Assembly (NCBI GenBank): GCA_044356725.1
Contig: JBIKVS010000001.1
Location: 2,839 to 66,838 of the forward strand
Direction of reading: 5' to 3'
Source of the DNA: Minisyncoccia bacterium
Lineage (GTDB): Bacteria > Patescibacteriota > Minisyncoccia > SW-4-49-11
Length of the DNA stretch: 64,000 nt
In this document: positions 17,909 to 51,539 of the stretch, in pieces
How positions within the stretch are numbered: position 1 is the first letter of the stretch
How the letters are laid out: each line of letters begins with the position of its first letter
The notes under the pieces: generated by a model
Databases searched by the model: none
What the model was told of the DNA's origin: nothing
What the model saw: only the letters and a program-made list of their open reading frames with translations
Position numbers and translations under genes: made by a program

Positions 17909-17960
17909 GGAGTTTGGATTTTATAAAAAAAATTATAAAGACAGATGAGAGGCTTGTAAT

Positions 17961-18323: not shown

Positions 18324-18524
18324 ATGAATCATCTTCGAAATGCAAGTCGTTTTGGAGTCATATTATTTTGGTCAGTTGTTATTGGTCTGATCCATTCGGC
18401 ATTTAACAACATCGATAATTCCAAATCACTTGGGTGGCCAACATGGTTGTTTTATGGAAGTGTTGGAGGAGCTATAATTTACGGTGGTGCATCTGTAACT
18501 CCCAAACTTTGGAACATCAAATGA
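18324..18524 (+). CDS. Small membrane protein, first gene of the higher-GC cassette.
   Basis: Two TM helices. Its stop overlaps the next start (ATGA). Confidence 0.4.
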   Translation: MNHLRNASRFGVILFWSVVIGLIHSAFNNIDNSKSLGWPTWLFYGSVGGAIIYGGASVTPKLWNIK

Positions 18525-19225: not shown

Positions 19226-19251
19226 GCATCTGCTATTTTTTTGAATCTTTT

Positions 19252-19290
19252 AGCTACAGGTACATACCGTACTTGTAGCTTTTTTATTTT
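19252..19290 (+). terminator. Strong rho-independent terminator: 11-bp stem AGCTACAGGTA/TACTTGTAGCT followed by TTTTTTATTTTTT.
   Basis: Read directly. Confidence 0.75.
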
Positions 19291-19333
19291 TTAGAATGGT
19301 TTCGTCTTCTTCTCGCCCCTCCTCAAAAAGGCA

Positions 19334-19348
19334 AAAATGTGGTATAAT
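19334..19348 (+). promoter_or_regulatory. Extended -10 element TGTGGTATAAT upstream of hsdR.
   Basis: About 30 nt before the ATG at 19379. Confidence 0.4.
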
Positions 19349-19378
19349 ATAAGTATATAACAAAGCCTAACCCAATAT

Positions 19379-24832: not shown

Positions 24833-26064
24833 GTAAAAAAGTAATACAAATTGGTAAAATAGCAAAACTTAATTTTAAAACACTTCGTGAAAGTGATAAT
24901 TTATCTGTAATTCAGTATCTAGATACAGGAAATATAACTAAAGATGAAATACAAAATTTACAGATACTAAACATAAAACAAGGTAGATTTCCAAGTAGAG
25001 CTAAAAGAAGAGTTAAAGAAAATACTATTATTTACTCCACGGTTAGACCAAATCAAAAACATTATGGTATCTTAAAAAGTCCAAATAAAAATTTAATTGT
25101 TTCAACTGGATTTACAACAATTGACATCATTAATAAAAAAAATGATCCAAAATTTATTTATTATCTTTTAACTCAAAACCAAATTACAGAACATCTTCAT
25201 AAAATAGGAATGAACGGGACTTCTTCTTACCCTTCAATTAAACCTGAAGATATTGGTAATTTGAAATTTATAATTCCAGAAAACATTCAAGACCAACAAA
25301 AAATCGCCTCTGTATTCTCAACAATTGATTCTAAAATCGAACTCAATAACAAAATCAATACCGAGCTCGAGCAAATGGCAAAAACCCTCTACGACTACTG
25401 GTTCGTACAATTTGATTTCCCAGTCCCTAAAAATTCCCCTCTTGAGGGGTGGACAGCTTCGCTGGACGGGGTGGAAGAAACAAAACCCTACAAAACCAGC
25501 GGCGGAGCAATGGTCTATAGCCAAGAACTAAAAAGACACATCCCCAAAGGCTGGGAGGTGAAGAAAATTAGTGATTTATTACCAGTAATTACAGGGAAGC
25601 AAGATGCAAATTTTGCTACCGAAAATGGAGAATATAATTTTTTTACTTGTGGAGAGGAAATCTTAAAATGTAATTCATACGAATTTGAAGGGAAGGCTGT
25701 TTTGATTGCAGGAAATGGAAATTTTGGGATCAAATTATATGAAGGAAAATTTAATGCCTATCAGCGAACATATATTCTAATGCCAAACAATGAAAAGCAT
25801 TACACTATTATTTATCTTGCAGTAAAAGATAAAATACAGTCTTTCAAAAATAGTTCTCGTGGTTCAATTATAAAATTTATAACAAAAGGAGATATAGAAA
25901 ATATTTTAATTCCTTTGCCAAAAGATAAGGATTTAGATGTATTTACTCAGCTCAATAATATCACAGAGAAAATTGAAAAAAATCTTGAAGAAAATCAAAA
26001 GCTTGCTGAGCTTAGAGACTTTCTCTTACCAATGCTTATGAATGGACAGATAGTAGTGGAGTAG
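24829..26064 (+). CDS. hsdS: Type I R-M specificity subunit with two target-recognition domains.
   Basis: Position in the operon; two-TRD architecture with conserved central and C-terminal coiled regions. Confidence 0.8.
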   Translation: MSKKVIQIGKIAKLNFKTLRESDNLSVIQYLDTGNITKDEIQNLQILNIKQGRFPSRAKRRVKENTIIYSTVRPNQKHYGILKSPNKNLIVSTGFTTIDIINKKNDPKFIYYLLTQNQITEHLHKIGMNGTSSYPSIKPEDIGNLKFIIPENIQDQQKIASVFSTIDSKIELNNKINTELEQMAKTLYDYWFVQFDFPVPKNSPLEGWTASLDGVEETKPYKTSGGAMVYSQELKRHIPKGWEVKKISDLLPVITGKQDANFATENGEYNFFTCGEEILKCNSYEFEGKAVLIAGNGNFGIKLYEGKFNAYQRTYILMPNNEKHYTIIYLAVKDKIQSFKNSSRGSIIKFITKGDIENILIPLPKDKDLDVFTQLNNITEKIEKNLEENQKLAELRDFLLPMLMNGQIVVE

Positions 26065-26067
26065 CAT

Positions 26068-26823
26068 TTGATACATAAGTTAAGCTTAGTGAAATTTATA
26101 AAATTAGGAGTTATGAAATTTATTCAAGTAAAAGTTAATTCGAACAGGGAAACTCAACTTTGCCTTACTTCAAAAGAACTAAAAGACTTACTCCGCAAAA
26201 ATATTCATAGAGAATTGGATGAATTAGTAGGTCAAAATATTGATCATGATAAACAAGAATTAATTGATAAAGCTTTTGAATCCGGTAAAAGAAGTGCAAA
26301 TACTAAAATGTATGAATATTATGAGGCAATATTATTTGGATACCACTATTTTGAAAGAGAATATGAATTTTGTTTTAATCTTAAGTCCTCTTTTGATGTT
26401 GATAAAAGTAGGATCAATTCAATAATGGACTTAGATATTTATAAAGTTGACCCTCCTGATATTATAATATTGTATAAGGGTAGTTTTCATTATTTTGAGC
26501 TCAAAAGATATAAAGATGAGATTAATCAGGATGCACTTTTATCTTTTGTGATGACAAAAATTTTAAAGCATTATCAACCTAATCTTAAGTATAATTATCT
26601 CATATTACTACAGTCACCACAGGCATTTGTAGGTGATAAAGTTTTTGAAACATTACATCATACTATCCAAAATCAAGAATTGATGAAGGGTTTTTTAGGT
26701 AATATTACTTTTTGTTTAAATGATAATAATGAAAAACATCTTTATATAAGAGTGTGGCCAGAATTTTATCATGAAGACAAACCTTTCGTCTCCATGAGTA
26801 AAATATTCAGTGATGTAGATTGA
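26068..26823 (+). CDS. Hypothetical protein with a possible PD-(D/E)xK motif (PPDIIILYKGSFHYFELKRYK); last gene of the R-M operon.
   Basis: Starts 4 nt after the hsdS stop. The motif is a weak pattern match only. Confidence 0.35.
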   Translation: MIHKLSLVKFIKLGVMKFIQVKVNSNRETQLCLTSKELKDLLRKNIHRELDELVGQNIDHDKQELIDKAFESGKRSANTKMYEYYEAILFGYHYFEREYEFCFNLKSSFDVDKSRINSIMDLDIYKVDPPDIIILYKGSFHYFELKRYKDEINQDALLSFVMTKILKHYQPNLKYNYLILLQSPQAFVGDKVFETLHHTIQNQELMKGFLGNITFCLNDNNEKHLYIRVWPEFYHEDKPFVSMSKIFSDVD

Positions 26824-26935
26824 TAATTATGTCATAATGTGGATAACTGATCTGTAGTAAATTTTAATTACCTGTTAAAATAAGAAAGTACCTCTTCTAC
26901 AGGTACTTTCTTAAAATAAAATCTTACCAGTTCTC

Positions 26936-27109
26936 TTAAGTAAGATCTCGGATAGGAGTACACAAATTGGTGCTTTTTACTAGTTCGATAGCATGTAAGG
27001 CACTATTTTTGTTTACATAAGCTTCGCCATGAGCAATAATTTCATTGTTTCCTGATTTTAGATTCCAGCGAAATTGCCCATATATATCTTTATATAATGT
27101 AAAATACAT
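26936..27109 (-). CDS. YegP/DUF1508-like small protein, 57 aa, below the ORF-track size cut-off.
   Basis: Own translation: MYFTLYKDIYGQFRWNLKSGNNEIIAHGEAYVNKNSALHAIELVKSTNLCTPIRDLT, which matches the DUF1508 pattern Y.D..G.WRFRLKA.NGEIIA.SEGY..K. Confidence 0.45.
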   Translation of the reverse strand: MYFTLYKDIYGQFRWNLKSGNNEIIAHGEAYVNKNSALHAIELVKSTNLCTPIRDLT

Positions 27110-27266
27110 ATATTTTTTTAATTATTTTAATATTCGATTAGAGTTTTATTATTCAACCTCGACCTCATATTGTAGCAATATGGGTAGATTTTATTACTCG
27201 TAATGTCATTGTATAAAATGTTTTCTTTCTTGTCAACAAAACTTACAAAATACAAAGTAAAAATAC

Positions 27267-27296
27267 TTGACAAAATGTAAAGTATGGGTGTATAAT
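27267..27296 (+). promoter_or_regulatory. Consensus promoter TTGACA-18nt-TATAAT for the HTH-Panacea gene.
   Basis: Read directly; about 40 nt upstream of the ATG at 27340. Confidence 0.6.
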
Positions 27297-27339
27297 ATAT
27301 TTGTATTAAAAATAAAAATTAGATTTAAGTTTTGGGTAT

Positions 27340-28122
27340 ATGGGTTATTTACAGAAAATTAGGCAGCAACAGGGTTTTAGTCAAGATTGGGTGGCGAGGC
27401 AATTGGGTATTTCACGGCCTACTTATATTTTATTAGAGTCAGGGCAGAGGGATTTGTCTGTCAAAGAGGCTAGAATTCTGAGTGATTTGTATGGGTTGAG
27501 TTTAGAGAATCTTCTGAACGAACTTATGCCAGAGCCAGCCAAGCCTGTGAACTTGATGGTGAAGGAGGAGGGAGCGGTAGAGTATAAATCAGATATTCGT
27601 GTTGCTGTACCGCAGGAAAATATAGAAAAATTTCGTGAGGTTTTATTATATATTTTGGAAAAAATAGGAGCTAGACCTAATATTGGGGAGGCTGTGATTT
27701 GGAAACTTTTGTATTTTATTGATTTTGATTATTATGAAAAGTATGAGGAGCAGTTGATTGGGGCTAGGTACAAAAGAAATCATCACGGTCCAACTCCTGT
27801 GATATCTACTCAGATTATAGAGCAAATGGAGAAGCAGGGGGATATTGTACGAGTGAATGCTAAATATTTTAAGTATGAACAAAAAAAGTATTTACCTTTA
27901 AGGTCAGCCGATTTATCTTGTTTGTCAGCTAGAGAAAAGACTCTCATTGATGAGGAAATTGAGCGATTCAAAGATTATAATGCGACTAAGATTCGTGAGT
28001 ATTCTCATCGAGATGTGCCTTGGATTACTACTGCATCTCAGGCGGAGATTGATTATGAGTCTGTTTTTTATCGTACTCCAGAATTTTCTAGAAGGGCTTA
28101 TTCTGGGGATGATGAAAATTAA
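27340..28122 (+). CDS. Fusion of an XRE-family HTH and a Panacea (DUF4065, SocA-like) antitoxin domain.
   Basis: N-terminal QGFSQDWVARQLGISRPTYILLESGQRDLSVKEARIL. C-terminal GEAVIWKLLYFIDFDYY...GPTPV...LS.REK.LIDEEIERF...YSHRDVPW, the DUF4065 signature ending in SH..PW. Confidence 0.6.
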   Translation: MGYLQKIRQQQGFSQDWVARQLGISRPTYILLESGQRDLSVKEARILSDLYGLSLENLLNELMPEPAKPVNLMVKEEGAVEYKSDIRVAVPQENIEKFREVLLYILEKIGARPNIGEAVIWKLLYFIDFDYYEKYEEQLIGARYKRNHHGPTPVISTQIIEQMEKQGDIVRVNAKYFKYEQKKYLPLRSADLSCLSAREKTLIDEEIERFKDYNATKIREYSHRDVPWITTASQAEIDYESVFYRTPEFSRRAYSGDDEN

Positions 28123-28206
28123 ATATAGAGAGGAGATTTCATTTCAGAAAACAAAAATTGAGATTTGGTTTGGAGTATGATAAGTTATGTATAGAATTAA
28201 TTTTAT

Positions 28207-28827
28207 ATGAAAATATATATCGATGAATCAGGTTCATTAGGGGTTAGGAGTAAAAATCAATATTTTGTATTGGCAGCTTTAGTTTGTCATAATAAAGTTG
28301 CTGATAAAAAGTTAAAGCAATTAGGTAAAAATATTTATAAAGAGTATTTAGCCCCCAATAATCTACAAGAGATACATGCTACTCATACTAGTTTTCCAGT
28401 TAAACAAAGAATATTGAATAAGATTGCTAAAATTCAAGATATTACAATATATTATTTGGCTGTAGAACAAGATAAAATACATAAGAATTTAATATTATAT
28501 CCTAATATTTGCTATAACTATCTAATTGGGTTGCTTTTGGAAGATATTATATTAGAGGCTCAGAACAATGTGGATATTATTTTGGATAATCATAGTACTA
28601 AAGTAGGTTCACTTAATTCTTTACATGAGTATTTGAAAATCAAAGCATTTACAGAATGGGGGCATAATTATAATTTTAGGTCTCAATTTATGGAATCTCA
28701 TAAGGTATGGGGTATTCAAATGATAGATGTGATTGCCAACTCTATTTTTACTCATTATAATTATAATAAAAGTTCTTTATATAAAATTACAAAGCATTAT
28801 TATAAATCAAAGAAATTTCCTTATTGA
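28207..28827 (+). CDS. DUF3800 family protein.
   Basis: N-terminal MKIYIDESGSLG resembles the DUF3800 YIDESG start. Confidence 0.5.
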   Translation: MKIYIDESGSLGVRSKNQYFVLAALVCHNKVADKKLKQLGKNIYKEYLAPNNLQEIHATHTSFPVKQRILNKIAKIQDITIYYLAVEQDKIHKNLILYPNICYNYLIGLLLEDIILEAQNNVDIILDNHSTKVGSLNSLHEYLKIKAFTEWGHNYNFRSQFMESHKVWGIQMIDVIANSIFTHYNYNKSSLYKITKHYYKSKKFPY

Positions 28828-28960: not shown

Positions 28961-29042
28961 AGTATAATTTATAATTAAACTAAATCCACCCCGTCAGGCT
29001 AAGCCTGCCACCCCTCAAGAGGGGAATTTTAACACAAAATAC

Positions 29043-29151
29043 AGGCGACTGGAAGGTCGCCCCTACAATTCATAATTAACATTAATCCACCACCGGCACT
29101 TCGTGCCACCTCCTCCAAAGGAGGACAGAAAGAATTCACAATTCATAATTA
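29043..29151. repeat. GC-rich repeat cluster. A type-1 hairpin GGCGAC-N6-GTCGCC-CCTAC lies at 29043-29066. A 61-bp double-hairpin element (GGCAC-TTC-GTGCC and CCTCC-TCCAAA-GGAGG) at 29079-29139 is flanked by 12-bp direct repeats AATTCATAATTA at 29067-29078 and 29140-29151.
   Basis: Copies of both motifs recur at 40372-40500 and 51434-51462. Confidence 0.6.
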
Positions 29152-29772: not shown

Positions 29773-31158
29773 TTATTTGGAATACTTATCTATGAATTCG
29801 GGCTTGATTTTCTTTAGTTCTTTTCTCGGTAATATTGATAATAATTCCCAAGATAAATCTAAGGTGTCTAGAATGGTTCGGTTTTCTCTTCTTCCTTGTC
29901 TAATATATCTATTCTCAAAGGCTTCAGCGAATTTTATATAGGCTTTATCTGTCTCGGATAGGGCTGATTCTCCTAAGATTAATGCCAATTCTTTAATTTC
30001 CATACCTTTGGCATAGGATGATGCCATTTGCTCTTTGACAGCGGATAAATCTTCTCTGCTGTATTTTTTATCTACTCCGATACGGGATAAAGATCCAATT
30101 GGTTGGATTGGAGGGTATATTCCTTGATTATGTAACTCTCTATTGACCATAATTTGCCCTTCTGTGATGTATCCGGTTAAATCTGGTATTGGATGCTGTT
30201 TATCATCATCTGGCATTGTGAGGATAGGGATTTGGGTAAGTGACCCTGTGGAGCCTTTGACTATTCCAGCTCTTTCATATAAGGTGGCAAGGTCGGTATA
30301 TAGATATCCTGGATATCCTCGTCGTCCTGGAATTTCTTTTCTGGAAGCTGAGACTTCTCTTAGGGCATCGGCATAATTGGTCATATCGGTTAGGATAACC
30401 AATACATGCATATTCTTCTCAAAGGCTAAATATTCTCCAAGGGTTAGGGCTAATCTTGGTAGGGTAATTCGCTCTACAATTGGGTCGCTAGCGGTGTTGA
30501 TAAATAGAGCGGCTCTCTCCATTGCTCCGGTTTTCTCAAATGAATCGATGAAGAATTGAGCTTCTTCAAAAGTTACTCCCATAGCGGCAAAAATTACTAC
30601 GAAAGGTTCTTCGGCTTTGACTAAATCGGTTCCATTTTGAAGGGCTACCACTTGGGCTTGTTCTGCAATTTGGGTGGCAATTTCGGCATGTGGTAATCCA
30701 GATCCTGAGAAAATTGGAAGTTTTTGTCCTCGGACTAGGGCATTGAGTCCATCTATTGTGGAGATTCCAGTTTGTATAAATTCACTAGGGAATTGTCGCA
30801 TTCCTGGATTGATAGGGGATCCATTGATGTCTAGATATTTCTCAGCGATGATTTCTGGTCCGCCATCTTTGACTTTCCCAGCTCCAGTGAATACTCGTCC
30901 TAACATACTGTCTGATACTCCAAATTTGAGAGTTTCTCCCAAGAAAGCTATCTCGGCATTCTCTACATCTAGACCATCAGTACTAGTGAATAACTGTACT
31001 ACGGCGGTGTCTTTCCCAGCTTCTAGTACTCTTCCTTGTCGAATCTTTCCTTTGGAGTCTCTAATTTCCACAATTTCCTCGAAAGCAACTTGTGGTACCT
31101 TCTCCACTACTACTAGTGGTCCGGCAATTTCTTTGATTGTGTTATACCATTTCTTCAT
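29773..31158 (-). CDS. atpB: V/A-type ATPase subunit B (non-catalytic).
   Basis: 461 aa with a strong family resemblance and no canonical P-loop. Confidence 0.85.
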
Positions 31159-31167
31159 ATAGTTATA

Positions 31168-33000
31168 CTAAATTCCGCTTATTACTTTATTGATACCAAA
31201 GTCCTCAGATTTATCATTATCTTTGAGATTCTGAATTGTACTTGAGATTTTATCAATTAACGGTACTATATTCTCAATGTCTGATTCTGGAGTGTTCTTG
31301 AGTCTAGCTATTTCTTCACGAATTGGTAGATCTAGAATATCATTTATCTCAATTTGAGGATTATTTTTGGCAGTTTCAGTGGCTTCATTATGGAAGGTTA
31401 TCATAGCCTTTAACATCAGGTACATTTTACGGGTTGAAGCAAAAGCATCAATATCATCAAAGGCATTTTGTTGTAGATAATCTTCTCGAAGTCCTCGGGC
31501 GGTATCTAATAGGATTTTCTCTGAAGTGGATAGGGCGTCCATTCCTACTAATTTTATGATGTCGTCTAATTCATTCTCTTTCTGTAAGATTTGCATAGCA
31601 AAGTCTCGCAAATCTTTCCAATCAGCATCTGTGGCATTGATGAAATATTCTTCTACATTATCTTTGTATAAACTATAACTATTGAGCCAATGGATGGATG
31701 GGAAATGTTTTTTAGCAGCTAAAGAAGCATCTAATCCCCAAAAGGCTTTGGTTACTTTAAGGGTTGCTTGACTAACCGGTTCGGATAAATCTCCACCTGG
31801 AGGTGATACGGCAGCGATAATAGTGGCTGAACCAATTTTCTCTTCACTCCCTAGAGTGCTAACTATTCCTGCTCTTTCATAAAAGGCTGAAATTCTAGAT
31901 CCAAGATAAGCAGGATATCCTTCTTCTCCTGGCATTTCTTCTAATCTTCCGGACATTTCTCGCATAGCTTCTGCCCAACGAGAGGTTGAGTCTGCCATCA
32001 TAGCCACATTGTATCCCATATCTCGATAGTACTCAGCTAAGGTAATACCTGTATAAACTGAGGCTTCACGAGCAGCGATTGGCATATTGGAGGTGTTGGC
32101 AACTAAAATTGTTCTTTCCATCAAAGGTCGTCCAGATTTTGGATCTTTTAGATGGGGAAATTCTACCAATACATCGGTAATTTCATTTCCTCGCTCTCCA
32201 CAACCTACATAAACCACAACATCTGCATCTGACCATTTCGCTAATTGCTGCTGAATCACAGTTTTACCAGCTCCGAATGGTCCTGGTACGGCGGCTGCTC
32301 CTCCTTTTGGAATTGGGAAAAAGGTGTCAATAATTCTCTGTTGAGTGATAAGTGGGGTAGTAGGAATTTGCTTAGCTTTATATGGTCTTGGAGTTCGAAC
32401 TGGCCATTTATGCATTAATTGGACTGGAGTTTCTCCAATAGTAGCTATGGTCTCAGTCACTGTGAATTCTCCTGCCTTGATATCCTTAACTTCTCCCTCT
32501 ACTCCAAATGGAACTAAAATTTTATGAGTAATTAATTCGGTCTCTTGTACTGTTCCTAATATGTCTCCAGCGGTTACAGAGTCTCCTTTTTTGACTAATG
32601 GTTGGAATTCCCATTTGGTTTCTCTATTCAAGCTAGGAGCGGTTAAACCTCTTGCAATATATTCGGAATTCAATCCTTGTGCAGCTGCTTTCTCAGCAAT
32701 TACATTAAGTGGTCGTAAAATTCCATCAAATAATCCAGCGGTTAAAAGTCCTGGACCTAATTCAATACTAAGAGGCTCTCCTGTTGATACAACAGGTTCT
32801 CCTACGGTTAATCCAGAGGTGTCTTCATAGACTTGAATGGAAGCGGTTTCACCTTTTAATTCAATGATTTCTCCCATTAATTCTAGATTTCCAACTTTCA
32901 CTAAATCATACATTTTAGCTCCTTTCATAGAGTCTGCGATAACTAGTGGTCCTGAGATTTTGATGATAATTCCGGTATTCATAGTAATTAGTTTAATCAA
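31168..33000 (-). CDS. atpA: V/A-type ATPase catalytic subunit A.
   Basis: Walker A GPFGAGKT; 610 aa including the non-homologous insert typical of A subunits. Confidence 0.9.
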
Positions 33001-33320
33001 GAGGCGAATAATTTGTCTAGGCTCATCCCTACAGCTTTCTCGGTCAATCTTTTCAATTCTTCTACCGAGTCGCTATTTGAACTAATCGGTAGCTGAGAAA
33101 TGGGTATGTTTAGGGAATTGAGGGATTTTTTTTGTTTTGGAGTTAAGATTATATTAGATGTGATAAAAATAATAGCATATTGATCAATATCCTCTGTAAT
33201 AGTAGCTATAATTCTATCTATTTCTAATTCAGTACTATTAAAGGTCTCAAATCCAAATAGTTTGAATAAGAGTATAATGTCTGTCTCAGCAATGATTAGT
33301 GGTTTTTTATAGTCTATCAT
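32997..33320 (-). CDS. atpF: V/A-type ATPase subunit F.
   Basis: 107 aa; position in the operon. Confidence 0.6.
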
Positions 33321-34255
33321 ATATTGGAATAATCAATAAATCTTAATTTCGCTTGTTTAGAGTCAATTTGTTTGGAATATTGTAAGATTAATAGTTTAGC
33401 ATTAGAAATTGCATATTGTAATCTCTCAGTATATTGTATAATTCTGTCTCCAGACATTCCAGTAAATTGAGCTTTATTGAGTGTTTTTATCTCATTTTTA
33501 ATCAAGGTATTTTCAATATTGATTATATTTATACTGGCTGGGGTTAGGTTTAGATATTGTCCGATATCTCCTAATATATCTCCAAAGCTAAAACTTTTGA
33601 CTGCATTAATAGCTAGACTTCCTTGAATTGGTAATAAATGTCTTAATATATGTTCTTTCGACTGTCCCTTTTGAGTTCTTGTTAAAACATTGAGTAGGGT
33701 ATAGCTATCTATTTTAGCTAAGACAAAGTCTCTCATAATATCACTACTATAGTCCAAATTTTCAAAAAGTAAGGTCAAGAATATCTCCTCTAAATAGGAA
33801 ATAATGCTAAAGCTATCTTTAGAGTGTATTAGCTTCTCTTCTTTAATTAGTAATTTTGTTTTAAACTTGGAGCCATAATATAGTTGAGTTGTCGTACCAT
33901 CTAAAATCTGTTCAAATGATTTTTCTCCCAAATTTTCACCATAAATAGTTTTATTCAAAGCTAGGGTTTTTAATTTTTCAAAGTCTTGAGATAGAGTTAA
34001 ATAGATAAAAGGTTCAGTATCTTGGGGCAATAAAGATAAGATTTCATCTATTTGTTGCTGATAATATTGATTAAGTTTAGTAATTACGTTCTCTAAAGAG
34101 ATATCTGATAATTGAAATGAATTTTGAATTAGATTTAATAAGCCCTCTATATTGTCTATATCCAAAAACCTCTTACTATCATTGGATGATGGTAAATTGC
34201 CTAGTCTTGAGACATATCTGCTTGTAACACCGATTAGAGGTACTTGTAAACTCAT
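33317..34255 (-). CDS. atpC: V/A-type ATPase subunit C (d).
   Basis: 312 aa; position in the operon. Confidence 0.6.
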   Translation of the reverse strand: MSLQVPLIGVTSRYVSRLGNLPSSNDSKRFLDIDNIEGLLNLIQNSFQLSDISLENVITKLNQYYQQQIDEILSLLPQDTEPFIYLTLSQDFEKLKTLALNKTIYGENLGEKSFEQILDGTTTQLYYGSKFKTKLLIKEEKLIHSKDSFSIISYLEEIFLTLLFENLDYSSDIMRDFVLAKIDSYTLLNVLTRTQKGQSKEHILRHLLPIQGSLAINAVKSFSFGDILGDIGQYLNLTPASINIINIENTLIKNEIKTLNKAQFTGMSGDRIIQYTERLQYAISNAKLLILQYSKQIDSKQAKLRFIDYSNI

Positions 34256-34788
34256 ATTTCCTTCATTACAGAGGTTAATGTTTTTTGCTTTACGATATCA
34301 ATAATATCTTCTATAGTGATTTCTAAGTGCCCTGATTCTAGCTGGGCTTGTACTGTGCCTAGAATTTGCTTATTGTCTATGAGTTGGGTTTTATATCCCA
34401 AATTAGTAATAATTTGCTCTAATTCATTACTATATTGTCCTACAAGAGTTAAAGTTATAGATTTAGGAATATCTTGTAATGTCTTTTGGATTAATTCCTT
34501 TACAAAATTAGATTTTAATATTTCAGGTATAAGATCTGCATAAATATCTGCTAATTGAGTTTGTAAAGAATATCCAAGCTCAAATTTAGTAGTTTTACTT
34601 TGCTGGAATTTTTTGAAATTAATCTGGGTAGAAACTGCCTCATCAATTTTCTCAGAATGTAGTTTTTTTACTTCAGATAAAGTAAAGTTCCAATTATTCT
34701 TGACATCTTGTAAGTCAGATTTATACTGAGTTTCTAATTTCTCAAGATCTTTATCTACCTGTGCTTGTATAGAATCAGCTAAAGTCAT
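34252..34788 (-). CDS. atpE: V/A-type ATPase subunit E.
   Basis: 178-aa coiled-coil stator subunit; position in the operon. Confidence 0.6.
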   Translation of the reverse strand: MTLADSIQAQVDKDLEKLETQYKSDLQDVKNNWNFTLSEVKKLHSEKIDEAVSTQINFKKFQQSKTTKFELGYSLQTQLADIYADLIPEILKSNFVKELIQKTLQDIPKSITLTLVGQYSNELEQIITNLGYKTQLIDNKQILGTVQAQLESGHLEITIEDIIDIVKQKTLTSVMKEI

Positions 34789-34789
34789 A

Positions 34790-35269
34790 TTATCCTACAG
34801 ATACTCCATTAATAATCAAAATAGAAACCAAAAGTCCAAAGACAGCAAAAGTCTCTACTAAAGCGGCTAAGATAATTACTTGTCCAATCTTAGATTTATC
34901 TCTAGCGATCAATTGAACTCCACTAGCAATTACATCACCCTGATATTTTCCAGAAGCTAAACAAGTAAGTCCTACAGGAATTCCAGCAAAAGCTAATATC
35001 ATACCATTTTGCCAACTAACATTTGCAAACTCACCAGATAATACTCCAGTATTTTGCAGAATTAAAACAGCTGCTAAAAGACCATAAATAGCTTGTGATC
35101 CAGGCAGAGCTGATAATAAAAGTATATTCCCAAATTGAGAATCATCCTCAGCAACTAACCCAGCTCCAGTTTTACCAGCGGTAGAAACTCCGATTGATGA
35201 GCCAGCTCCAGCTAAGCCGGCAGCTAGAGCAGCACCTAATACTGCTAAACTTATACCTAATACTTCCAT
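34790..35269 (-). CDS. atpK: V/A-type ATPase proteolipid subunit K (c), a 4-TM double hairpin.
   Basis: 159 aa, glycine/alanine-rich TM helices. Confidence 0.8.
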   Translation of the reverse strand: MEVLGISLAVLGAALAAGLAGAGSSIGVSTAGKTGAGLVAEDDSQFGNILLLSALPGSQAIYGLLAAVLILQNTGVLSGEFANVSWQNGMILAFAGIPVGLTCLASGKYQGDVIASGVQLIARDKSKIGQVIILAALVETFAVFGLLVSILIINGVSVG

Positions 35270-35372
35270 ATATTCAACTTTAACTTTTAATTAGGGACAG
35301 AGATTCTTACCACTGCTATCCTTTTCGCTATACTCCTAAATTTTTAAGAATATAATGAAAAAGATAACAGTA

Positions 35373-37409
35373 TTATTCAATAACACTATAATCTTGAGAT
35401 CGAGAAACCTCCTGTAAGGGTCTTCCTCCAGATTGGAAGAATTTACTAAAGAATTCTACAAAGTGCAATCTACCTACATTGATATAAGTACCTAAGACAT
35501 TCAGAGCAATATTAAATATATTTCCTGCTACAAAAATAACAATCATAATAATATATCCAATAACAATCCAAGCACCACCTTTTTCTACTAATCCGCTACC
35601 AGCTAGGTTTGCTAAGGTTCCTACTACTCCAGCAATAATTCCAGTTGCAAGACCTAGAGCAACTAACCTAGTATAAGATAGTATATCTGACAAATATCCT
35701 ACTACTCCAAAAAATACATCATAGGCTCCTTTACCAAACTTAGCAAATATAGACTTCATATCTCTACCCAAAAGATATATCATTGTAAATACATAGCCAA
35801 TATATATATATATCAGAGGATCAATGAGTAATTGAAGTCCATTTCCTAATAATCCAAAATTAATAAGCAATAATAATATTCCAAAGATCAAAGCTAAAGC
35901 CCAAAGAATAGAATCTAGACTAGCATCCCAGAATGACTTTTGATTGAATGCTTGTACAATGTTGAGAGATAACCCAAATAAAAGATGAATAACTCCAAGT
36001 ACAATAGTGAATCCCATCAAAGCAATTACACTGTCCATAGGATTGATAACTTGTAATTGCTGTAAGAAAGGAATTAAACCAATAGTAATTAAGAATTTCA
36101 TATGGGGTGATGCTGTATCAGGATCAACTCCATCGGGAGTAATTCCAAACCAACTACCAAATAAAGCTCCTACAATCAAAGTAGAGATAGAAGCAATAAA
36201 CACTACTGCAAAAATATCTCTTACACCTGATTTTAATCTAGAATTTAATAATCCAAGCCCAGTCAAAATAATTAGAATCAGCGCATATCCAGCCTCAGAT
36301 AAAGCTAATCCGAACATAAAGGTGAAGAATATAGCAATAGATAAAGTCGGATCAATTTTGCCAGCCTGCGGATAACCCATAATTTTTGTTACAGTTTCAA
36401 AATGTCTTACAATAGGCAAGTTTTTGAATATAACTGGAGTGTCTTCAGATACAGATGGTAATTCTACAATTTTAATATCATTTGAAATGTCTAAAATATC
36501 TTTTTTATATAAATTAAACTTTTCTTCATCTACCCATAACTTTATAGAAGAATTTGTTTCAGATTCTGGATTAAAAGAATGTAAATAAGAAATCAAATTT
36601 AGTTGAGAATTTAATACATCTGCTAAAATAGCCAAATCCTTGAGCTGAATAGGGGATTTTTTGAGCTCAAGATTTATTTTATTGATGATTTTGGCATTAA
36701 CACTAAATTCTTGTTTACTTTTATGATAAATATCATAAAAAGATCCTGTAACTTCAGCTGGAAATTGAATGAAGGTAGCTTGATTTTGAATTATATCTAG
36801 TCCAATTTTAACCTGATTTTTTGAAACGGCTAAAATATAAACATAATCAGTCCCAATTTTTTTAACAGACTCCAATACAATAGGAGATAAACTTTGCTCC
36901 AACTGCTCTACTAAATAATGGGCTCTAGATTCATCAACTAAAAATGGTAAAAATTTAATATAAGAATAGGGTTTAAAAATATTAAGTTCGATGTCTTTTA
37001 GAGGTTCTGATTTAGCAATAATATCTTGTAAAACTTCTTGTCTAGTTGTTAAATCATCTTTCAGTCCAGCTTTTTCTACAATCTCTTGAGCTTTTTTGAT
37101 AATTTCTCCTTGCTCTGTATTATAATGTTCAAAAATGTCTTCAGTGATTAAAAATCTATCATCTAACACAGCTGAGAACATGGATTTTTTAACAGTATGA
37201 TACCCTTTGTATATATCCAAAGATTTATTTACTATATCTAGATTTTCTAATAGATCCTCTTGTTTATGTAAATAATTTTTAGCTAAAGGAGTTCTTTCTA
37301 GTTTTTCTATAATTTCTCCAACTTGACGCTTTTGAATATAAGCTAATAAGTTTAATTGAGTATTGTTTGGAACAGTGATTTGAATTAGTTTAGACGCTTG
37401 AACTCCCAT
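35373..37409 (-). CDS. atpI: V/A-type ATPase subunit I (a).
   Basis: 678 aa, with a soluble N-terminal half and a multi-TM C-terminal half. Confidence 0.8.
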   Translation of the reverse strand: MGVQASKLIQITVPNNTQLNLLAYIQKRQVGEIIEKLERTPLAKNYLHKQEDLLENLDIVNKSLDIYKGYHTVKKSMFSAVLDDRFLITEDIFEHYNTEQGEIIKKAQEIVEKAGLKDDLTTRQEVLQDIIAKSEPLKDIELNIFKPYSYIKFLPFLVDESRAHYLVEQLEQSLSPIVLESVKKIGTDYVYILAVSKNQVKIGLDIIQNQATFIQFPAEVTGSFYDIYHKSKQEFSVNAKIINKINLELKKSPIQLKDLAILADVLNSQLNLISYLHSFNPESETNSSIKLWVDEEKFNLYKKDILDISNDIKIVELPSVSEDTPVIFKNLPIVRHFETVTKIMGYPQAGKIDPTLSIAIFFTFMFGLALSEAGYALILIILTGLGLLNSRLKSGVRDIFAVVFIASISTLIVGALFGSWFGITPDGVDPDTASPHMKFLITIGLIPFLQQLQVINPMDSVIALMGFTIVLGVIHLLFGLSLNIVQAFNQKSFWDASLDSILWALALIFGILLLLINFGLLGNGLQLLIDPLIYIYIGYVFTMIYLLGRDMKSIFAKFGKGAYDVFFGVVGYLSDILSYTRLVALGLATGIIAGVVGTLANLAGSGLVEKGGAWIVIGYIIMIVIFVAGNIFNIALNVLGTYINVGRLHFVEFFSKFFQSGGRPLQEVSRSQDYSVIE

Positions 37410-37756: not shown

Positions 37757-38317
37757 TTATTTTGGCCAATTATCTGGATGTAGGGAGTCTAATTGCCAAT
37801 TAATAGGGTTATTTATAATATAATTTTGAACTCTCAACAAATCAGTTTCATTACGAATAATATGGTCATAGAAAGATTTTTGCCAAAATGTATTATATTT
37901 ATTTATTATATTTTTCGTAGAGTCGGCGACCTCGCCGACATTATGATTATTGTATTTTTTTACATTCCTCAATGATATTTGTTTAAAACTAGAGATTATG
38001 TCTCCCAAAGAAACTTTTTTATTAGTAGCTAAAGAATATGAATTTTTGTCTATACCAATTATTCCATGAAAATGATTTGGCATTAATACATATCTATCTA
38101 ATTTAATATTAGAATAATACTTTGGTATATCAAGCCAAGTACTTTCTACAATATTTCCAATATTATTTAATTTAAATTTATAAACATCTTCGATATATGT
38201 CGGCGTGGTCGCCGACTCTACGAAAATACATTTCATATCATAGACACATATAGTCACAAAATACCAATAACCCCCAAGATATAATTCTTTTGACAATCTG
38301 TGTCGTTGTCTTTTCAT
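37757..38317 (-). CDS. REP-associated tyrosine transposase (RAYT / IS200-like TnpA_REP) with two in-frame REP-like insertions.
   Basis: YLGGYWYFVTI (compare Y.GG.W.FT in RAYTs); HuH motif YVLMPNHFHGII; C-terminal WQKSFYDHIIRNETDLLRVQNYIINNP (compare WQPRFWEHAIRN...YI.NP). Confidence 0.7.
   Translation of the reverse strand: MKRQRHRLSKELYLGGYWYFVTICVYDMKCIFVESATTPTYIEDVYKFKLNNIGNIVESTWLDIPKYYSNIKLDRYVLMPNHFHGIIGIDKNSYSLATNKKVSLGDIISSFKQISLRNVKKYNNHNVGEVADSTKNIINKYNTFWQKSFYDHIIRNETDLLRVQNYIINNPINWQLDSLHPDNWPK
37916..37943. repeat. REP-like palindrome TCGTAGAGTCGGCG-ACCT-CGCCGACAT inside the RAYT coding sequence, encoding NVGEVADST.
   Basis: Codons mapped one by one. The same unit occurs at 40507-40534 and 51401-51427. 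Confidence 0.7.
38195..38224. repeat. Second REP-like palindrome ATGTCGGCG-TGGT-CGCCGACTCTACGAA inside the RAYT coding sequence, in the opposite orientation, encoding FVESATTPTY.
   Basis: Codons mapped one by one. Confidence 0.7.
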
Positions 38318-40371: not shown

Positions 40372-40536
40372 CAGTCCTCCTCCGTCACCTACGGTGCCAC
40401 CTCCCCCAAGGGAGGACAGTTCTTATTTTGTCTCCCTTTTTAACTGCCGTAAGTAGTTGGAGGGAGTACCCGTGGGGGGCAACAGAAGGTCGCCCCTACG
40501 AAAATTATGTCGGCGTGGCGCCGACTCTACGAATAG
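40372..40536. repeat. Mosaic GC-rich repeat cluster. In order: the double-hairpin element (GGTGCCACCTCCCCCAAGGGAGGACAG), a degenerate type-1 hairpin ending AGGTCGCCCCTACGAAA, and the REP palindrome ATGTCGGCG-TGG-CGCCGACTCTACGAAT at 40507-40534.
   Basis: Aligned by eye to the copies at 29043-29151, 37916-38224 and 51401-51462. Confidence 0.65.
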
Positions 40537-46793: not shown

Positions 46794-49793
46794 TTATAAT
46801 ACTTTTAACCCCAATACTCTTTCTAATTCTGCAAAATCAGTGGTATGGTCTAATACCTTTAGAATACCAGAAACTTCTAGAGTTGTCATCCCTTCCTCAA
46901 TAGCTAGGCTCTTGATATTAGCAGTTGAGGCCTTAGATATAATGATCTCTTTGATTTTAGGTGTCAGTACCAATACCTCGAATATAGCAGTGATGCCATT
47001 ATATCCATTTGGATGCTCTGGGCTAGAATTAGACTCGAGAATTGTATCAGGTATTATGCTATGATATCTCTCTGGTAATTTAGATTTGATTATATCTTTC
47101 TGTTCATCAGAAAGTTTAACAGAGGTTGCATTAGTGGGGTCTATTTTTCTTACAATTCTTTGAGCAATAGTCACATTTACAAAAGTAGCTATCTCAGATA
47201 ATCCAACTCCTAAGTCATATAATCTTAAAATAGCCGAAGCCGCATCATTGGTATGTAGGGTTGATAATAGTAAATGTCCAGTAGCTGCTGTCTGCATCGC
47301 TACCTTAGCAGTCTCTCCATCTCTTATCTCGCCAATTAAGACAATATTAGGGTTTTGTCTTAATAAAGCTCGAATAGCATTAGGAAAACTATACCCAGTC
47401 TCTTCATTGATACTGGTCTGTAAAATTCCAGATAATTTGTATTCAATTGGATCTTCTATAGTGATAATTTTGACTCCAGGTTGATTGAGGGTATTAAGAG
47501 TCGCATAAAGAGTAGTAGACTTACCTGCACTAGTAGGTCCAGTTACCAAAATGAGTCCAGTAGTTGCCTGTAATTGTTCCTGCAAAAGATTAATATTATA
47601 CTCATCCATCCCAAGATCTTGTAATTTGAGCTTAGCAATGTCCGATCGTAATATTCTCAGCACAATAGTTTGCCCATAACCTCCAGGGATAATCGACACT
47701 CTAACATCAAAGTTTTTATCCGCAAAAATAGTAAATCTACCTTCTTGAATTTTATTTGCAATATCTAAAGGTAGCCCAGAAAAAATTTTAATTTGAGTTA
47801 AAATTTGAGGATAAAGTGACTTCGGAACACGAGCTTCTTCATATAATACTCCATCAATTCTAAATCTAATTATAAGATCAGACATATCTGGCTCGAGATG
47901 AATGTCCGTAGCTCTTTTAATCAATGCAGTGTTAGTAATAGCTGTTAATTGGTCATTGATAGACATAGATTCAGATATATGTGCAATTTCGGGTAGAAAA
48001 TCACCAGATTGCTTGATATGAATTCCTCGAGATAAGGCAGAAGTCAAAGTAGCCTCATAAATTTCATCTATATAGGATATATCTCCCGCTACAGATAAAA
48101 CTTCTTCAAGAGAAGTCTCTCCATTTACTGCATGCAATACTCCGTCTTGAAACAGAGTCACCATACCATTTTCAACAGCTTTTCTAAATATTTTAAACTC
48201 TGGTATATTATTGACAATTAAGTCTTTGATATTATCTCTAGTTTCGAATAATTCATATAGAGCAAATCTACCTTTATATCCAAGTCCATAACATTTAGCA
48301 CAGCCTTTAGGTCGATATAATCTGTTAATTTCTTGGGGAATGGTTAAATTAGATTTAGGTGAAATTATAGCCAAAGCTTTTTTAATGAGATCCAACTCCT
48401 TTTCTTCTGGAATATATTCTTCTTTACAATCACAAAGTTTTCTTACTAGTCTTTGAGCCACAAAAAGATTCATCGCTGAGATTATTAGCTGAGGGCTAGA
48501 ACCAAATTCTTTTAGTCTAGTTACTATACCAACAGAATCATTAGTATGAATAGTAGAGAATACTAAATGTCCGGTAATGGCAGCGTTTACAGATATACTA
48601 GCAGTCTCATTATCTCGAATTTCTCCAACCATAATCACATCAGGATCTTGTCTTACAATCGCCTTTAATCCGTTAGCAAAAGTGTATCCTTTTTTAGTGT
48701 CTACTTGAGTCTGATTTATATTTTGCAACCTATATTCAATAGGGTCTTCAATAGTAATAATATTAGTCTCAGAGCGATTTACATAATTCAAAAAAGAATA
48801 AAGACTAGTAGTTTTACCCGAACCAGTTGGACCAGATAACATAATCATTCCTTGAGGTTTGTCTAGATTCCTTACAATAATATCCAAAAAAGCCTCTCTA
48901 ATGCCAAAACTATAAATATCCAAATTATGAATCTCTGTATTAAGTAATCTCATCACAATAATTTCCCCGGTCTTACTAGGCAGAATTGATACCCTTACAT
49001 CAATAGATTGTTTTATATTCCCATTATTTTCTTTGATAACAATACTAAATCTACCATCTTGAGCAGTAGTTTTAATATTCAAAACAAGAGAAGCTAAATT
49101 TTTGATCCTTGAAATGAGTAATTTATACATTTCATTATCAAAATTCAAAATATCTTGCAAAACTCCATCTATACGATATCTAAGACGTGTAATATCTCCT
49201 TTTGGCTCAATATGTATATCACTAGCAAAAGCTGTTATAGCCCCAGCACAAATTATTTGAATCAATTCAGAGGTATCCATAGCATCAATTTTGCGAGCGA
49301 AATCTTCCAAAGACACAATACCTTCTTTGAATTCTTGTAACATTGTAATTGGCACTATTAACCTATCCTTCACCACTTCACTTCTTTCCTGTAGAAAGTC
49401 ATAAGCTGCATAACCTTTTTCTAAACTATATTTTGATATTATATATAAATCTAATTCATAATTACTTTGATAGAGTTTTTGCAATATAGTTTTAGCGATT
49501 GGATTGTCTAAATCTTTTAGAGCCACTTTAAGATTTAGTCCAGATCTTTGAAAAATTATCATTTGGGCTTTTTTAGACTGTTCCTTAGTTAGTATTTTTA
49601 AAGCGTCTTGGTTTATTGGAATAAATTGCAGGTTTAAATAAGCCATACCAAGACTATCTGCCAATTTTTGAGTGTTACTCTCTTCTTCTTTTTTACGAAT
49701 AGTAGATAAATTCATATCTATCGCATTATTAGAATGCAATTTGTCTCGAAAGCTTGGACGATAAGATTTTTTTTGTTTTAATATTGAACTCAT
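46794..49793 (-). CDS. Tandem double GspE/PilB-type secretion ATPase: an N-terminal T2SSE_N-like region, ATPase core 1 with a tetracysteine motif, then ATPase core 2 without cysteines.
   Basis: Two Walker A boxes, LSGPTGSGKTT and VTGPTSAGKST; two full core repeats; CDC...CAKC only in core 1. Confidence 0.85.
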   Translation of the reverse strand: MSSILKQKKSYRPSFRDKLHSNNAIDMNLSTIRKKEEESNTQKLADSLGMAYLNLQFIPINQDALKILTKEQSKKAQMIIFQRSGLNLKVALKDLDNPIAKTILQKLYQSNYELDLYIISKYSLEKGYAAYDFLQERSEVVKDRLIVPITMLQEFKEGIVSLEDFARKIDAMDTSELIQIICAGAITAFASDIHIEPKGDITRLRYRIDGVLQDILNFDNEMYKLLISRIKNLASLVLNIKTTAQDGRFSIVIKENNGNIKQSIDVRVSILPSKTGEIIVMRLLNTEIHNLDIYSFGIREAFLDIIVRNLDKPQGMIMLSGPTGSGKTTSLYSFLNYVNRSETNIITIEDPIEYRLQNINQTQVDTKKGYTFANGLKAIVRQDPDVIMVGEIRDNETASISVNAAITGHLVFSTIHTNDSVGIVTRLKEFGSSPQLIISAMNLFVAQRLVRKLCDCKEEYIPEEKELDLIKKALAIISPKSNLTIPQEINRLYRPKGCAKCYGLGYKGRFALYELFETRDNIKDLIVNNIPEFKIFRKAVENGMVTLFQDGVLHAVNGETSLEEVLSVAGDISYIDEIYEATLTSALSRGIHIKQSGDFLPEIAHISESMSINDQLTAITNTALIKRATDIHLEPDMSDLIIRFRIDGVLYEEARVPKSLYPQILTQIKIFSGLPLDIANKIQEGRFTIFADKNFDVRVSIIPGGYGQTIVLRILRSDIAKLKLQDLGMDEYNINLLQEQLQATTGLILVTGPTSAGKSTTLYATLNTLNQPGVKIITIEDPIEYKLSGILQTSINEETGYSFPNAIRALLRQNPNIVLIGEIRDGETAKVAMQTAATGHLLLSTLHTNDAASAILRLYDLGVGLSEIATFVNVTIAQRIVRKIDPTNATSVKLSDEQKDIIKSKLPERYHSIIPDTILESNSSPEHPNGYNGITAIFEVLVLTPKIKEIIISKASTANIKSLAIEEGMTTLEVSGILKVLDHTTDFAELERVLGLKVL

Positions 49794-49915: not shown

Positions 49916-51334
49916 TTGTATAAAGTAAAAATAATAAATATGAATGGCTCAAATATGAAAAAACAGAGTAAAGGTTTTACACTCCTAGAAATACTTTTAA
50001 CTATAATGCTAATTGGGATATTAGCAACAATAGTACTTGTAGCAATAAATCCTAATAAACAGATCTCACAATCAAGAAATCTTGTTAGAAAGGCAGATAT
50101 AAATAGTATATATAATGCTTTGCAGCAATACAACGCTGTTAATAGAGGGGTTTCAAATTTCAATATATCCAATAATTATACTGAGATATGTGATACAGGA
50201 AGTCTTACTACAGAAGATAGTCTGCCAAGTACAAACTATTGTGATGGTAAAATTGACTTAAGAGCATTAGTTCCTACGTATTTAATTGAAATTCCAAAAG
50301 ATACTGATACTTCATTAGGTGGTACCGGATATGAACTAGCAAAGGATTCTAATAATCAGACTAGCTTAAGGTCTAATAAAGAAGAGCTGTCTCAGATTGT
50401 AGCAATAAATCCACTGCCAACCCCCGAAGAATTAATTCAAGCTCAGATAGCGGCAGGGACATTAATACCAACAGGGACACAACAATTAGTCTTAGATAGA
50501 TTAGTATATAAGAACAATGCAGGAACTCAGACATATATAGATAAGTCCACAACTACAAGAACCTGTCCAGCTAATTATATTCCAGTCCCAGGGAATAGTA
50601 TGTATGGAACTAGTGACTTTTGTGTAATGAAGTACGAAGCTAAAACAGGGTCCGCCACAGTTTCAGCCACAACACAAACAGCAGGAAACCCACAAGTAAA
50701 TATAACTCAACCAAATGCCATCACAGCCTGTAGTTTAAACGGAGCAGGATATGGACTAATCAATAATAATGAATGGATGACCATAGCCAGGAATATAGAA
50801 GGACAAGGAGTCAACTGGACAGGAGGAGCAGTAGGCAGTGGAGGTTTATGGCGAGGACATAGTGATGGAAGTCCAAATAATGTATTAGCAGCAAGTACAG
50901 ATGACAATGATCCATACTTTGGAACAGGAAACACCAGTCCAAGCATAGAGAGAAGAACCCATACCTTAAGTAATGGAGGAGTAATCTGGGACTTAAGTGG
51001 GAATGTCTGGGAATTTACCAATAATACCATATTAGGAAAAGACCAACCAACAGGAACTACTCCAGGATTTAATTGGAGACAATATACAGCAATAACTAAT
51101 TATGGAACTTTAAGTTATGACCTAACCCACCCAAGTAATACTAGATGGAACAGTAGTCAGAATATGGGACAAATATACAGTGATGGAACAAGTACTAACA
51201 ATACAACTTTCGCCTTCATCCGCGGTGGTGATTGGGATGGTGCTGATACTACTGCAGGAGTATTTACTCTTCGCCTTCATCTTACTCCCGCCTCTACGTT
51301 TACTAGTATTGGCTTCCGCTGCGTTCTGCGCTGA
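49916..51334 (+). CDS. Type IV pilin-like protein with a C-terminal FGE-sulfatase (formylglycine-generating-enzyme family) domain. Likely start at the Met at 49955 (MKKQSKGFTLLE).
   Basis: Class III signal KGFTLLEILLTIMLIGILATIV. C-terminal WDLSGNVWEF...IRGGDWDG...IGFRCVLR, compare YDMSGNVWEW...RGGSW...GFRCA. Confidence 0.6.
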   Translation: MYKVKIINMNGSNMKKQSKGFTLLEILLTIMLIGILATIVLVAINPNKQISQSRNLVRKADINSIYNALQQYNAVNRGVSNFNISNNYTEICDTGSLTTEDSLPSTNYCDGKIDLRALVPTYLIEIPKDTDTSLGGTGYELAKDSNNQTSLRSNKEELSQIVAINPLPTPEELIQAQIAAGTLIPTGTQQLVLDRLVYKNNAGTQTYIDKSTTTRTCPANYIPVPGNSMYGTSDFCVMKYEAKTGSATVSATTQTAGNPQVNITQPNAITACSLNGAGYGLINNNEWMTIARNIEGQGVNWTGGAVGSGGLWRGHSDGSPNNVLAASTDDNDPYFGTGNTSPSIERRTHTLSNGGVIWDLSGNVWEFTNNTILGKDQPTGTTPGFNWRQYTAITNYGTLSYDLTHPSNTRWNSSQNMGQIYSDGTSTNNTTFAFIRGGDWDGADTTAGVFTLRLHLTPASTFTSIGFRCVLR

Positions 51335-51400
51335 GGGGCAACTGGCTCCTCTGCCTAAGTTAGACAACTCTGGGAGCCAGTGAGCTCAGTAATTCGTCAT

Positions 51401-51462
51401 TCGTAGAGTCGGCGCCCCCGCCGACATTTACATTTCGTAGGGGCGACCTGCCAGTCGCCTGC
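51401..51462. repeat. REP palindrome TCGTAGAGTCGGCG-CCCC-CGCCGACAT followed by a type-1 hairpin (GTAGGGGCGAC-CTGCCA-GTCGCCTG) in the pilin/pgk intergenic region.
   Basis: Aligned to the copies at 37916 and 40507, and to 29043 in reverse orientation. Confidence 0.65.
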
Positions 51463-51539
51463 ACTTCTTACCACACCTACCCAAATTAGAACAGAACTAC
51501 AATTTATATTTTTCTAAATCTATGGTATAATAATTTTAT

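Follow-up and report, generated by a model that had tools for sequence, protein, structure and literature searches.

Lectin-fold proteins of the formylglycine-generating enzyme (FGE) type are well-known targets of diversity-generating retroelements (DGRs; PMC5758913). DGRs are enriched in candidate phyla radiation (CPR) genomes, and Roux et al. (2021) found that their targets in this group typically have no recognisable transmembrane, surface or other domain, for a reason that was left open (PMC8144416). A 2024 survey places a GspG-type pilin domain among the rare domains that hold a variable region (VR; PMC11661182). Cultivated Saccharibacteria need type IV pili for episymbiotic attachment, according to one study (PMC9894109). 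A part in host binding has been attributed to modular minor pilins of the lectin-like kind, and the papers on Saccharibacterial type IV pili make no mention of DGRs (PMC11623550). Here we describe a gene on the forward strand of a 64,000-nucleotide stretch (hereafter the window) of contig JBIKVS010000001.1 from a Minisyncoccia bacterium. We propose, with a probability of about 0.75, that this gene encodes a modular type IV pilin-like protein with a non-catalytic lectin head of the DGR type, and that its VR has most likely been orphaned; most likely, the protein serves an ultra-small symbiotic bacterium as a variable adhesin whose adjacent mutator has been lost. We know of no characterised modular pilin that is diversified by a retroelement.

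The window's list of open reading frames (ORFs) contains the gene from a TTG codon (49916–51334, forward strand, 472 residues). The real start is likely ATG 49940, which gene callers chose in other assemblies (protein P0001), or ATG 49955. The gene and its parts are as follows.

49955–51334, forward strand: gene for the modular type IV pilin-like protein, 459 residues from ATG 49955, with ATG 49940 and TTG 49916 as other starts (ORF list, Pfam and NCBIfam matches, homologues)
49955–49975, forward strand: class III (prepilin) signal peptide, its short and basic leader MKKQSKG (G-1/F+1/E+5 pattern; PF07963, TIGR02532)
49976–50404, forward strand: pilin module, residues ~8–150, a hydrophobic α1 helix and a GspG-like globular head (profile match to GspG/PilA; structure model)
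50405–50560, forward strand: connector domain, residues ~151–202, one helix and short strands (modelled secondary structure; indels in alignment)
50561–51331, forward strand: C-type-lectin-fold domain of the FGE subtype, residues 203–459, predicted to be non-catalytic and of the DGR-variable-protein type (PF03781; Foldseek; no Cys pair)
51209–51334, forward strand: VR footprint FAFIRGGDWDGADTTAGVFTLRLHLTPASTFTSIGFRCVLR and stop codon, the last ~36 codons (entropy, NNY codons, adenine content, mismatch to a relative's template)

The lectin-fold domain and its variable region

Both Pfam domains lie within one ORF. The N_methyl family PF07963 is matched with 26.5 bits (cut-off 21.2) and the NCBIfam model TIGR02532 with 24.7 bits (cut-off 16.3). 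The match to the FGE-sulfatase family PF03781 is marginal but passes, with 24.2 bits against a cut-off of 23.3 (E 3.1e-5, ORF residues 246–470), and many homologues carry a precomputed FGE-sulfatase match. A prepilin N-terminus is therefore indeed fused to a domain of the FGE-sulfatase family, as an earlier note on this DNA had read from the letters, proposing a profile search with PF03781 as a check. The same note had called the fusion unusual and had suggested a survey of related genomes; hundreds of homologues have the same architecture, the full-length ones being 45–68% identical to the window protein, and the domain pair IPR012902–IPR005532 is already listed, for eight proteins and without comment, in Dataset S1 of Raynaud et al. 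(2021).

The AlphaFold2 (AF2) model of the protein (predicted local distance difference test score, pLDDT, 78; predicted template modelling score 0.70) was compared with the Protein Data Bank (PDB) by Foldseek. DGR variable proteins take the top rank, specifically TaqVP (5vf4, E 1.8e-9), Mtd (1yu0–1yu4, E 3e-5 to 8e-4) and TvpA (2y3c, E 3.5e-3), with the FGE-fold enzymes PvdO, ToxD and EgtB interleaved with TvpA at E ~2–3e-3.

The PF03781 match, together with lower-ranked fold matches that include PvdO, ToxD, EgtB and OvsA, would suit a catalytic domain, FGE/SUMF1-like or EgtB/PvdO-like, projected on a pilus. The active site speaks otherwise. In human FGE, the catalytic residues Cys336 and Cys341 lie in GGSYMCHRSYCYRYRC...GFRC (motif ...MCHRSYC..., between the GGS-aromatic motif and GFRC), a segment confirmed in PDB entries 1y1e and 2aii. 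The window counterpart of this segment is RGGDWDGADTTAGVFTLRLHLTPASTFTSIGFRC; this would-be active site is the hypervariable stretch, and neither the window protein nor any of the 51 aligned homologues in which the segment could be located has a cysteine there, which contradicts FGE chemistry. Furthermore, no DinB or iron-binding partner domain accompanies the module, and the best structural matches are non-enzymatic. We consider an enzyme extremely improbable. Because the FGE active site is absent, the C-terminal module would bind and not catalyse, by analogy with Mtd, TvpA and TaqVP. The earlier picture of a pilus-displayed FGE-like module thus survives in part: the fusion stands and the module may plausibly be displayed on a type IV filament or close to it, while the enzyme-like side of it is lost with the Cys pair.

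The 3′ end of the gene has the features of a DGR-written region. In alignment A1 of the homologues, the 11 highest-entropy columns among the C-terminal 257 residues all fall at residues 426–451, surrounded by an invariant scaffold made up of R423, G435 and, within the GFRCV motif, R455, C456 and V457. Among 45 VRs in one register, T or C is the last base of hypervariable codons in 84–96% of cases, while conserved codons use all four third bases; in the window, every one of the 14 variable codons has the form NNY, the background being 0.47 (p 2.5e-5). Adenine makes up 13% of positions 51209–51334 and 37% of the gene as a whole, and the scaffold codons are G+C-rich and A-free (cgc, ggc ttc cgc tgc) in a genome of ~32% G+C. 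Compared with the heterologous template repeat (TR) of a related locus, L081, the window VR is mismatched at 19 of 33 adenines and at 13 of 97 other bases (Fisher p 1.6e-6). This footprint is the pattern expected of AAY template codons copied with adenine-specific errors and, judged by it, the last ~36 codons are a DGR variable region.

In L081 the gene of P0008, a homologue of the same architecture with 65% full-length identity to the window protein, is directly upstream of bAvd, the TR (11899–12028) and a reverse transcriptase (RT) gene (RVT_1); 15 of the 16 TR/VR mismatches are at TR adenines, and the TR encodes FAFLRGGNWNNTTNAGVFTLNLNNTPSNTNNNIGFRCVVR. Overall, Avd, TR or RT is present at about 23 of 161 related loci. 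An adenine-biased TR/VR pair in which the VR forms the 3′ end of the homologous gene was found in 7 of 80 loci from species-representative genomes, all 7 with an RT bearing the DGR-type IGNLTSQ motif and 6 with YMDD as well, and about a dozen of 80 metagenome loci add cis DGRs. Members that are both pilin-fused and DGR-linked occur in L039 and L045 (both Saccharibacteria), L081, L134, L135 and L126, and probably in L158; in L039 the order is pilin-fused target, Avd-like gene, TR, RT. A TR/VR pair with mismatches at TR adenines lies in cis in L081, L039, L045, L134 and others.

Ordinary diversifying selection with recombination among paralogues, and no retroelement, could also make a C-terminus hypervariable, and the family is multi-copy and no retroelement was found in the window. 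Such a process does not account for variation that is confined to codon positions 1 and 2 with position 3 fixed as T or C, for the adenine depletion of the region, for mismatches to a relative's TR that are A-specific, or for bona fide TR/VR/RT sets in relatives of the same architecture. We hold it to be highly improbable.

Three observations concern the family at large. First, a locus in a Woesearchaeota metagenome-assembled genome (MAG; L044, 9866–10780) has the same lectin-VR module fused to an archaeal-looking class III signal, KKGVASAVIATALLFIAAIF, which suggests that DPANN archaea, too, display DGR-type heads in the manner of pilins. Second, a 294-kb scaffold of 60% G+C labelled Cryobacterium lyxosi (L052) carries a pilin-fused member that matches query residues 1–455 and may be a genuine non-CPR member or a possible case of transfer. 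Third, family genes often lie at contig ends and in many copies per MAG (at least eight in JBMTTF01, at least seven in JBIKWJ01, three on one 54-kb contig; L001–L032, L084–L116); the conserved module probably breaks assemblies, so that copy numbers and cis-DGR frequencies are underestimated.

The pilin module and its setting

Among 55 full-length homologues, T9, L10, E12 and L15 of the prepilin motif do not vary, and the conservation of K6, G7 and F8 is at least 90%. Because of this conservation the motif is part of the protein. Cleavage is predicted after Gly7 and before Phe8 (MKKQSKG followed by FTLLEI). A profile of the 55 homologues matched solved structures of Geobacter PilA (E 2.6e-10) and GspG (5wda, E 6.7e-8, profile positions 12–120), and the AF2 model has helices at residues 10–29 and 33–62 and strands at 123–151; a PDB search with the single sequence gave only weak pilin matches and spurious antibody matches. 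The connector (pLDDT 84–93) is present in some homologues and absent in others in alignment A1. The region after the motif had been described as rich in Thr and Gln. Residues 41–215 contain 11% Thr and 5% Gln, against 13% and 4% in the whole protein, and they form the confidently folded pilin head and connector (pLDDT mostly 76–94), so that this description does not hold.

The gene is divergent from a candidate assembly motor:

46794–49793, reverse strand: 999-residue protein with two tandem T2SSE (PilB/GspE-type) ATPase domains (PF00437, 693.7 bits, two stretches)

Both T2SSE domains are complete, in agreement with the tandem GspE ATPase reported earlier. This adjacency recurs in the same-species loci L082 and L083 and in only three other loci among ~160; the ATPase link is local to the genome and not a family trait.

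Whether the head is carried on an extended pilus must be weighed against a simpler arrangement, in which the prepilin-like N-terminus does no more than anchor the protein in the membrane or signal its export, or the protein belongs as a pseudopilin to a filament of the competence or secretion type, so that the head stays at the cell surface. At 459 residues the protein is large for a polymerising subunit, its pilin head resembles GspG, and pilus genes rarely adjoin the family. The same head also sits on many other carriers, among which are lipoprotein-like ones and surface proteins of great length: the lectin module recurs in 973 clusters (E ≤ 1e-30) of 235–3761 residues, with many N-terminal carriers and sometimes several tandem copies, and 21 of 37 VR-bearing full-length genes from species-representative genomes have a prepilin N-terminus. 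However, the G-1/F+1/E+5 motif and the GspG-like head are conserved beyond what an anchor needs, an assembly ATPase adjoins the gene here, bulky modular pilins are built into type IV pili (PilB of Streptococcus sanguinis, PMC8179133), and Saccharibacteria bind their hosts through lectin-like modular minor pilins (PMC11623550). We therefore judge the anchor or pseudopilin arrangement unlikely and prefer a modular pilin.

Probable cassette loss and the target site

A repeat finder, low-stringency blastn, scans for YxDD and IGNLTSQ, and tblastn with the Avd and RT of L081 revealed no TR, RT or Avd in the window, and pgk starts 205 nt past the stop codon. Elements that resemble a DGR target site follow the VR:

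51311–51339, forward strand: putative initiation of mutagenic homing (IMH)-like element, the G+C-rich VR 3′ end and GGGGC after the stop codon
51341–51381, forward strand: inverted repeat ACTGGCTCC / GGAGCCAGT, 9-bp arms and 23-nt loop (DNA folds), the counterpart of the 4-nt-loop target-site hairpin of relatives

Specifically, the VR of the DGR-linked L081 closes with the same ...CGCTGAGGGGC, where the TR of that locus has ...CGCTGAGTGGC, and the ending is common to L005 and L010. A hairpin, ACTGCCTCC-N4-GGAGGCAGT, lies at the same offset in L081 and in eight other loci (L005, L010, L084, L090, L094, L110, L119 and L123), each with GGGGC, 9-bp arms and a loop of 4 nt, whereas the window loop has 23 nt. 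In phage BPP-1 the stem structure is required, and two extra loop nucleotides drop homing to near background (PMC3240598).

Relatives capture stages of cassette decay. Beside one pilin-fused member (L167, 7458–7940) there remain Avd and a degenerate TR-like copy whose 3′ half is itself diversified, without RT, and beside another (L105, 7316–7528) only a 71-residue C-terminal fragment of RT. In L165 (1868–2040) and L166 (7353–7430), where the two closest relatives P0004 and P0007 are encoded, the spacer that lies downstream of the TR in L081 comes immediately after the VR stop codon; in L165 an RT comes after the spacer, and Avd and a separate TR are missing. These joins fit recombination between VR and TR, or an assembly join.

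The window VR is identical to that of P0001, from the same species, on contigs from two other samples. A base-by-base comparison, which covers one of these two contigs (L082), gave 96.8% identity over 20 kb, with five single-nucleotide polymorphisms (SNPs) in the gene and none in the VR. Over window positions 41284–61334 the divergence from L082 is mosaic, with 0–11 SNPs per kb at 50–55 kb, the pilin gene included, and 29–159 per kb at 41–46 kb, which suggests a recent recombination or sweep of the 50–55 kb segment. A scan of metagenome DNA for the VR pattern (scaffold fixed, variable and adenine positions free) gave no match and did not recover the window's own locus either, so that it is uninformative on the organism; the L082 and L083 contigs came from a collection other than the one scanned. 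Because the window has no Avd, TR or RT, its hairpin loop has 23 nt, its VR is identical in another assembly and relatives show stages of decay, we conclude with moderate confidence that the window copy is an orphaned, frozen VR.

The VR might still be rewritten in trans, through the IMH-like end and the inverted repeat, by an Avd–TR–RT set elsewhere in the genome. The window retains GGGGC and both hairpin arms intact, the arms carrying a compensated G/C swap, and the VR is strongly A-poor and G+C-rich for this genome, which suggests recent writing. Genomes hold many paralogues and few cis cassettes, orphans keep intact hairpins, remote targets are documented for other DGRs (PMC5758913), and two VRs from one MAG (L020 and L027) differ in their 3′ halves only at positions 1 and 2 of variable codons. 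Against this stand the enlarged loop, since loop size is critical in BPP-1, the identity of the VR across independent assemblies, and the differences in VR length and scaffold ends among paralogues of one MAG, owing to which a single TR cannot serve them all. Rewriting in trans is, in our view, possible but rather unlikely.

Several points weigh against an orphaned pilin-borne lectin as a whole. The PF03781 score is only just above its cut-off, and AF2 confidence is low (54–71) across residues 361–440. Incorporation into a pilus, cleavage and ligand binding are inferred, and no prepilin peptidase, platform protein, major or other pilin, or paralogue was found in the window. As regards orphaning, the intact GGGGC end and hairpin arms count on the other side. 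At least four relatives (L010, L094, L110 and L123) keep the 4-nt-loop hairpin without a DGR within 6–10 kb, which fits trans-targeting within the family. The loop-size rules come by analogy from one phage system, and the strain comparison is weak, as the whole 50–55 kb segment is nearly identical and assemblies show only a consensus. Moreover, the window covers 64 kb of the genome, and a DGR may lie elsewhere in it.

Downstream of the inverted repeat, the position that Avd–TR–RT takes in relatives is occupied by a dispersed repeat:

51408–51459, no strand assigned: two G+C-rich hairpins, GTCGGCG-CCCC-CGCCGAC and GGCGAC-CTGCCA-GTCGCC

The fold z-score is −4.0 for 51335–51480. Similar copies lie at 40487–40534, 37914–37942, 38194–38224 and 29042–29066 (to 29125), and the hairpins, at first considered as DGR elements, were rejected as such, being part of a dispersed family in the window and not specific to the locus. 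Pieces of the repeat also occur in other Paceibacteria loci (L010, L019 and L027); the genome is A+T-rich. In L010, an orphan member with an intact 4-nt-loop hairpin is followed by ~640 nt of G+C-rich, apparently non-coding DNA (1228–1868), parts of which recur in other loci. Rfam gave no credible match for the gene, its flanks or this long non-coding stretch.

Elsewhere in the window, a second ORF of 999 residues (19379–22378) was considered as a tandem ATPase and rejected; it encodes a type I restriction R subunit. It lies in a defence or mobile island (17306–28827) flanked by a 46-nt inverted repeat (25430–25475 and 28985–29030). Encoded in the island are a T5orf172 protein, a type I restriction-modification system (HsdR at 19379–22378, HsdM, and a KilA-N protein inserted before HsdS), a helix-turn-helix plus SocA/Panacea protein, and DUF3800. 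On the reverse strand, at 29773–37409, this apparently Patescibacterial genome has an operon for subunits A, B, F, c and I of a V/A-type ATP synthase. A 592-residue protein encoded at 15007–16785 (forward strand) has a ricin-B lectin domain and an internal repeat spaced by 138 nt (15942 and 16080), and is a candidate surface binding protein.

Proposed mechanism and comparison with known systems

In the mechanism that we propose, the signal peptide of class III, the α1 helix and the GspG-like head form the carrier, as sequence and profile matches show. The carrier would be cleaved by prepilin peptidase and inserted, probably at the tip, into a type IV filament that the neighbouring tandem PilB-type ATPase may assemble. 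The variable face of the lectin fold would bind a host-surface ligand, as suggested by Mtd, TvpA and TaqVP and by the modular minor pilins of S. sanguinis and of the Saccharibacterium TM7x. Judged by its footprint, the VR was written by adenine-specific mutagenic retrohoming from a TR like the one beside P0008; at the locus the Avd–TR–RT cassette is gone, and the loop of the target hairpin has 23 nt in place of 4. The protein would probably serve to attach an episymbiotic Patescibacterium to a ligand on the host-cell surface.

The family ties the enrichment of DGRs in CPR genomes to pilus-mediated attachment, given the 21 of 37 genes that are prepilin-fused and the at least six pilin-fused members beside Avd, TR or RT, and it offers a testable mechanism for rapid retargeting of pilus adhesins. 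The window copy documents the opposite end of the process, at which the cassette is lost and the specificity fixed. A broader proposal, which we put forward tentatively and with the odds somewhat against it, is that pilin-borne lectin heads are the main targets of the lineage-specific DGRs of Patescibacteria (and, with archaeal-type pilin signals, of DPANN). Host recognition would then be a retroelement-driven, pilus-displayed repertoire, in which orphans would be archived specificities or be rewritten in trans. If true, this would explain why CPR DGR targets seem to have no membrane or surface domain, the question raised by Roux et al. (2021).

Three groups of described proteins resemble parts of the window protein. 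Human SUMF1/FGE (1y1e) and pFGE/SUMF2 share its Pfam family, overall fold and the blocks W-x-GNVWEW, RGG-W and GFRC; unlike FGE, the window protein has no Cys336/Cys341 pair, its active-site segment is the variable region, and its best fold matches are not FGE. Modular type IV pilins (in S. sanguinis, PilB with its vWA module and PilC with its lectin module; PilX1 and PilX2 of Nanosynbacter lyticus TM7x) likewise combine a small pilin module with a bulky ligand-binding module, and a tip location and an adhesin role have been proposed for them as they are here. The effector module differs from theirs in being a DGR-type hypervariable lectin fold, here known from sequence. In gut Bacteroides, according to a preprint (bioRxiv 10.1101/2024.11.15.621889), a DGR also diversifies the adhesive subunit of a pilus; those adhesins are of type V, from another phylum and on another carrier fold, and in the present case the DGR link runs through the family and not in cis.

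A further group of counterparts are the FGE-type DGR variable proteins (TvpA of Treponema denticola, 2y3c; TaqVP, 5vf4; category 'b' targets of Wu et al. 2018). Like them, the window protein has an FGE-sulfatase signature without FGE activity, a VR in the last ~40 residues with a ...GFRC ending and AAY-templated NNY codons, and a GC-rich VR end followed by an inverted repeat, and relatives have Avd–TR–RT immediately downstream. Unlike them, the window copy is without TR, Avd or RT in the 64 kb and its hairpin loop is enlarged, and its carrier is a type IV prepilin module in place of a lipoprotein signal or of no recognisable domain. The combination of pilin and DGR-type lectin head is thus catalogued but uncharacterised; it joins two known kinds of protein, and the window gene is an ordinary cassette-less member of the large family that carries it.

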